Source: Escherichia coli (GTDB lineage: Bacteria > Pseudomonadota > Gammaproteobacteria > Enterobacterales > Enterobacteriaceae). Taken from it: a DNA stretch of 440 nucleotides. Every line of letters begins with the position of its first letter. Positions within the stretch are counted from its first letter, which is position 1. A program made the translations under genes and the position numbers. Location of the stretch: the NCBI RefSeq assembly GCF_003334385.1, contig NZ_QOWN01000181.1; one strand, 5' to 3'. Positions 1-440 of the stretch are shown here, piece by piece. Below the pieces are notes generated by a model. It ran no database searches, had not been told where the DNA came from, and saw only the letters and a program-made list of their open reading frames with translations.

Positions 1-440
1 GCCGTGGTGTGGACGCCCGTCAGCCTTCCCGTGTCGCTGTAACGGTACTCCCGGCTCTCCTGCGGGCCGCTGATGCGGATTAGCTGTCCGTTGTCGTTCC
101 AGTCGTAGTCACGGTCAAGCTGCGGAAGGTTCAGGTGCCTGCTCCGGAGCTGGCCGCTGGTATTCCAGGCGGTGGCAAGTTCATATGCCTCCCCGCCGAA
201 GCTGCGGGCCGTCTCACGGTGCAGCCTGTCCCGCGTGTACTCGACCAGCGGTGTTCCGCCCAGCTTCATCCCCGCAAGATAACCGCTGCCATACGTCAGC
301 CACTCCACCGGCGGCAGACCGTCCGGCTCCTGACGGGTCGCCAGCCCCTGTTCGCTGTACGCATGCCCCGTCTCATGCTCCCACAGCATCTCCCCCGTCT
401 CCGGGTTCTCCACCGTCTGCCGTTCGCCCGTCAGGCGGCC
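1..440 (-). CDS. rhs: Rhs family protein, internal fragment of the conserved YD-repeat core (partial at both ends; N-terminus toward higher coordinates, C-terminus toward lower coordinates)
   Basis: Seen in sequence: the minus-strand frame starting at base 440 is open for 146 codons (bases 3-440 in frame, bases 1-2 a partial codon), and all five other frames contain stops. Third-position GC is about 83% (121 of 146 codons end in G or C). The translation contains YD-repeat motifs (EYRYSDTGRLTGV, DRDYDWNDNGQLIRIS, GRLTGE) and the block VEWLTYGSGYLAGMKLGGTPLVEYTRDRLHRET, which I recognise from memory as part of the E. coli Rhs core. The family call is established knowledge plus recall, not a database search. 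Which paralogue (rhsA, B, C, D or another) cannot be decided from this fragment. Confidence 0.92.

Follow-up and report, generated by a model that had tools for sequence, protein, structure and literature searches.

The window, by which we mean the whole 440-bp stretch of Escherichia coli DNA analysed here, lies with high confidence in the middle of rhsG, the Rhs effector gene located immediately 3′ of vgrG in the aspV-linked T6SS island, and is effectively single-copy in most of the genomes that carry it. It had been expected to be one of several near-identical repeats. The identity of the window as Rhs core was upheld, and the expectation of a dispersed repeat was borne out only in a minority of carriers, in which a second gene of the same type is present.

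The window and the rhsG locus

Frame 1 of the minus strand is the sole frame open over all 440 bases (146 codons), with stops in the other five frames. All of the window (1..440, minus strand) is coding: in strain NCTC86 it corresponds to nt 2281-2720 of a 4233-nt gene, codons 761-906 of the 1410-residue Rhs core protein. The window peptide matched the NCBIfam model NF041261, 'RHS element core protein' (E=3.5e-78, 263.6 bits), over profile positions 756-905 of 1261, and a single recognisable RHS/YD repeat unit was found by Pfam RHS_repeat PF05593 (E=1.5e-5) at peptide residues 114-145 (window 6..101, minus strand). A megablast search of 5,426 complete E. coli genomes with the window gave 100% DNA identity to annotated RHS core genes in many complete chromosomes. 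The G+C content of the window is 62-69%, above the ~60% of whole Rhs core genes. These results confirm that the window is Rhs core from end to end, as the original prediction had held, and the match is far beyond chance.

The NCTC86 gene that contains the exact window scored 2487.6 bits against NF041261 over residues 4-1257, exceeding the curated cutoff of 2000. Six stretches of the full protein matched TIGR01643 (YD_repeat_2x), and the Rhs-associated core domain TIGR03696, which marks the core-tip boundary, was located at residues 1180-1257, outside the window. The locus lies between yafV and tRNA-Asp in the order hcp, vgrG, rhs and a 130-aa ORF, with a full tss cluster (tssB-tssA) on the other side. 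vgrG is directly upstream of the rhs gene, and the hcp-vgrG-rhs order is also found in S51 and WP7-S17-ESBL-04 (WP7). The gene is thus genetically linked to vgrG/hcp and to the T6SS cluster in the manner of a T6SS-delivered Rhs effector. A gene in this position, downstream of vgrG, was named rhsG by Cummins et al. 2023 (PMC10711316). Locus and gene order are the same as for that vgrG-linked effector gene of the rhsG/H type in the aspV T6SS island; the window is 100% identical in nucleotide sequence to annotated RHS core genes at the aspV locus, and no substantive difference was found. The name rhsG as used here rests on the locus and on this published usage, not on the ECOR-50 RhsG/RhsH reference sequences.

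Sequence homology links the NCTC86 protein, the shell region of the window included, to T6SS Rhs effectors of solved structure (Tse5, 8cp6, E=1e-112; Rhs, 7q97; Tse15). The YD-repeat shell is the part in which it resembles P. aeruginosa Tse5 (8cp6), Photorhabdus Rhs (7q97) and P. protegens RhsA (7pq5), although these effectors come from other species and differ in their N-terminal domains and toxins, and the likeness is one of sequence. By homology to them, the YD repeats of the window would form part of a β-sheet shell (cocoon), which would encapsulate the variable C-terminal toxin until its delivery by the secretion spike. The residues encoded by the window are therefore best regarded as a probable part of the toxin-enclosing shell. 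Past nt 3721 the alleles drop to 29-40% identity, and the cores stay similar. The 153-residue tip of NCTC86 (L002 18491-18949) weakly matched the Pfam YkuD L,D-transpeptidase catalytic domain (E=2.8e-5), a hint that the putative toxin may target the cell wall. The 130-aa ORF overlaps the 3′ end of the rhsG gene. A PADLOC search of the tip and of this downstream ORF returned no match, and neither did an NCBIfam search of the ORF.

It is possible, though on the whole unlikely, that the window in its source belongs to a dead gene remnant, a 5′-truncated rhsG left without protein function after loss of much of the T6SS island. Such a remnant exists in CFSAN061772, where the exact window is found in a 2229-bp 3′ piece of rhsG fused to a partial tagH, a 5′-truncated pseudogene. 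Relative to NCTC86, ~11.96 kb is missing from this genome, a deletion that takes out vgrG, hcp and tssB-G. At the junction (L001 20712-20718) the two segments that match have 7 bp in common, which points to a microhomology deletion and not to Rhs-Rhs recombination. A partial 'RHS repeat-associated core domain' protein is annotated in 20 of 60 exact-match genomes, CFSAN061772 being the one inspected, and for ST410 there are published deletions that take in both rhsG and tss genes (PMC10711316). Against this, an intact 'RHS element core protein' is annotated in the other 40, the frame is intact within the window, and the truncation has been followed in the single case of CFSAN061772. In the source, the window may belong to a gene without a functional product.

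Divergence from other Rhs cores and copy number

The original prediction had described Rhs cores as several near-identical multi-kb copies per genome, and the window as one of them, prone to collapse in assemblies and a substrate for RecA-mediated duplication and inversion. For the window this reading is improbable. The description fits rhsA/B/C and rhsD/E; it fails for the rhsG-type core, whose identity to those genes is 73-78%. [quoted passage not shown] 2009, PMC2935791). The segment homologous to the window was aligned from all five rhs loci of K-12, identities being taken both from a MAFFT matrix and from BLAST. The segment falls into three groups. Within rhsA/B/C identity is 96-100%, with 73-74% MAFFT identity to the window; within rhsD/E it is 94-96%, with 76-77% to the window; and within the type of the window (rhsG) it is 88-100%. 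By BLAST, the window is 73-75% identical to K-12 rhsA/B/C and 78% identical to rhsD/E. A core of the rhsG/H subfamily would be expected to differ from rhsABCF and rhsDE at about a fifth of its nucleotides or more, and the 73-77% identity of the window to K-12 rhsA-E agrees with this. On these identities the window can be assigned to the third core subfamily (rhsG/H), 22-27% diverged from the rhsA/B/C and rhsD/E cores.

The K-12 rhsA/rhsB/rhsC and rhsD/rhsE cores belong to the same family as rhsG, with the same architecture, the same NCBIfam model and ~60% G+C, but at 73-78% identity to the window (BLAST) their longest exact runs with it are 15 bp (A/B/C) and 38 bp (D/E). Paralogous Rhs cores elsewhere in the same genomes had been predicted and were found. 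In NCTC86 the comparison covered the rhsD, rhsC and rhsE loci, placed by synteny, and not rhsA and rhsB; identity to the window is 78% for the genes at the rhsD and rhsE loci and 75% for rhsC. The longest exact run with another of the NCTC86 cores found is 38 bp in the window (280..317, minus strand; shared with the rhsD and rhsE-locus genes) and 70 bp in the whole gene, and the best identity over 150 columns is 88%. The rhsE locus of this strain (L014 8815-15213) holds an intact vgrG and a full-length D/E-type rhs gene where K-12 has only the rhsE pseudogene, and the NCTC86 rhsD gene is annotated as frameshifted.

Members of the other subfamilies do behave as repeats: K-12 rhsA and rhsB do not differ over the homologous segment (100% identity) and share an exact run of 1811 bp, and the rhsD and rhsE-locus genes of NCTC86 share one of 2776 bp. 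The near-identity behind rhsA-rhsB recombination does not reach as far as the rhsG subfamily. With short exact runs and >20% divergence, reads of at least 100 bp should map uniquely here, assembly graphs with k above about 40 should not tangle at the window, and RecA-dependent exchange between rhsG-type and other cores should be rare. The view of Rhs cores as 'classic substrates for RecA-mediated duplication' traces to a selected duplication between rhsA and rhsB in K-12. That historic recA-dependent duplication is cited by Jackson et al. 2009 (PMC2935791), according to whom the original rearrangement phenotype was an artefact of the selection used and no natural chromosomal rearrangement via rhs elements had been reported.

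Copies were counted by megablast of the window against the 5,426 complete E. coli genomes, with E-value cutoffs standing in for identity thresholds. At E<=1e-150 (~95% or better, ungapped) 1,385 places were found in 1,376 genomes, and at E<=1e-95 (~85% or better) 2,865 places in 2,313 genomes; at both cutoffs the median per genome was one and the maximum three. Among 60 sampled exact-match genomes, 52 had one place and eight had two (E<=1e-95), three of the latter coming from one study and hence not being independent. The median of two places per genome given by megablast before the cutoff was tightened is due mostly to rhsD/E-type cores at ~80%, rhsA/B/C at 75% being undetected by it. The cutoff of E<=1e-150 was rejected as a proxy for >=90% identity since it dropped gapped alleles of 90-92%; it was kept as a filter for ~95% ungapped matches and E<=1e-95 was added. 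The full-length 90-92% alleles with a 12-15-bp indel were lost at this cutoff though their reported E-values were 1e-161 to 1e-180. A tight E-value cutoff is no clean identity threshold for gapped alignments. With the whole 4.2-kb gene as query, E<=1e-150 was uninformative, as 80%-identical paralogs pass on length alone.

The count at >=90% identity, which had been proposed as the check, gave one copy in most carriers among the complete E. coli genomes. Two or more copies at this identity occur in a minority, for example in WP7 (90.9%), and exact runs above k-mer or read length are likewise present in WP7 (616 and 648 bp) and absent from NCTC86. The expected lack of uniqueness thus holds for the minority of carriers (8/60, second copy at ~85% or better) and fails for most. 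From the complete genomes we infer the copy number of the window itself: the 22-27% divergence of the rhsG-type core from rhsA/B/C and rhsD/E would make it effectively single-copy in most carriers. In these it should map and assemble uniquely and would be a poor RecA substrate against other cores; it turns into a genuine repeat only where another rhsG-type gene is present.

Tandem rhsG-type genes and recombination within the locus

NCTC86 and WP7 were the two genomes dissected in detail. At the aspV locus of WP7 two full-length rhsG-type genes are present in the same orientation, ~14 kb apart, in the order hcp, vgrG, proximal rhs, immunity, several IS66-family elements, dsORF-h1, distal rhs, immunity. 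The exact window sits in the distal gene. Over the window the proximal and distal genes are 90.9% identical; the 648-bp exact run common to both starts within it (1..77, minus strand) and continues past it toward the 3′ end of the gene. In such two-gene genomes short-read collapse, mis-joining of tips and deletion between direct repeats appear realistic. Chimeric assembly, which had been feared for the copy-specific parts of Rhs genes, is thus a realistic concern with a tandem second gene, as in WP7, but not in NCTC86, where exact runs within the window do not exceed 38 bp.

The second WP7 copy was also considered for the rhsE locus, as in GCEC19; this was rejected, as the rhsE-locus gene of WP7 is of the D/E type (78%) and the second copy is the tandem one at aspV. 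An rhsG-type core of 88-90% identity is found at the rhsE locus of other strains such as GCEC19, and the GCEC19 variant is matched by 786 records at >=99%. GCEC19 itself has two tandem Rhs core genes at its rhsE locus (L009 7197-11729 and 14804-18452), one of them rhsG-type. The last ~750 nt of the latter (3′ core end and tip) are 100% identical to the proximal aspV-locus gene of WP7 in every 120-nt bin; one core-tip unit is therefore present at two chromosomal loci in different strains.

To follow the relation between the single NCTC86 gene and the two WP7 genes, the NCTC86 allele (L002 18488-22720) was scored at each of 939 alignment columns where the WP7 genes (WP7-S17-ESBL-04 L016 18488-22717 and 32231-36751) differ. 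Up to nt 2073 it agrees with the proximal gene at 283 of 284 sites; from nt 2109 on, 654 of 655 sites agree with the distal gene. This confines the crossover to a 35-bp interval, gene nt 2074-2108, which is 173-207 bp from the window edge. On this pattern, the single NCTC86 gene is a clean chimera of the WP7 pair. It is most simply explained by a deletion through homologous recombination across a tandem pair, with the direction inferred from the comparison. Such a deletion would have joined the 5′ half linked to vgrG with the 3′ half of the distal gene, its tip and its immunity gene, and past recombination of this kind would have given rise to the common single-gene allele that carries the exact window.

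A chimera of rhs-main and rhs-orphan has been proposed and engineered in Salmonella Typhimurium (Koskiniemi et al. 2014, PMC3967940). There, adjacent sequences in the same orientation recombine in the shared core and the 5′ part of the main gene gains the other tip, and the NCTC86 gene has the same structure. Unlike the Salmonella pair, both E. coli partners are full-length and IS elements lie between them, and the event is deduced from genome comparison. The NCTC86 structure also fits the C-terminal displacement model of Jackson et al. (PMC2935791), which has a homologous-recombination step. Recombination between Rhs cores, as the prediction had supposed, is thus real in the form of the NCTC86 chimera of tandem genes; the part that did not stand is the window as a substrate for exchange with other cores, at 73-78% identity. 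These observations agree with Jackson et al.: recombination is local, within the locus, and swaps tips, and there is no sign that the window is a dispersed near-identical repeat.

Within the window, a hypervariable core patch of ~130 bp was delimited from the alignment, a patch identity matrix and binned identities (window 78..208, minus strand; gene nt about 2513-2643). Other rhsG-type alleles match the window at 70-72% over gene nt 2525-2640 and have, relative to it, an insertion of 12 or 15 bp, yet their identity on both flanks of the patch is 97-100%. In the S51 allele (L008), whose core is rhsG-type elsewhere, approximately the first 60 bp of the patch (window 156-208; gene nt 2513-2565) are of the D/E type, and the 15-bp insertion is part of this tract. 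This tract suggests a short gene conversion between subfamilies. That the patch, with its in-frame indels, is a site of recurrent gene conversion or of diversifying selection, for instance a loop touching the toxin or a partner, as opposed to neutral mosaicism, is a very doubtful proposition.

The idea that the window is some other feature (a plus-strand gene, a structured RNA or an internal repeat) and not plain coding sequence can practically be dismissed, as stops occur in all plus-strand frames and the longest plus-strand ORF is 36 aa, an Rfam scan of the window returned no family at E<=1, a repeat scan of the window returned no internal direct repeats, and no evidence in favour of such a feature was found. 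The sole inverted repeat in the window is a weak, overlapping 18-nt imperfect palindrome at 132-159 (83% complementary), which falls within coding sequence and is not supported as a feature.

Significance for annotation and for Rhs biology

The gene to which the window belongs, its family and their behaviour were all known beforehand, and none of the findings departs from known biology; they matter little outside annotation and assembly quality control. For these purposes the "Rhs" label should not automatically be read as "collapsed repeat": the rhsG-type core acts as unique sequence in most genomes, and long-read confirmation is needed only for assemblies with a second rhsG-type gene. The recombinant common allele, for its part, is a clear-cut natural case of tip swapping, a mechanism that had been proposed for Rhs genes before.
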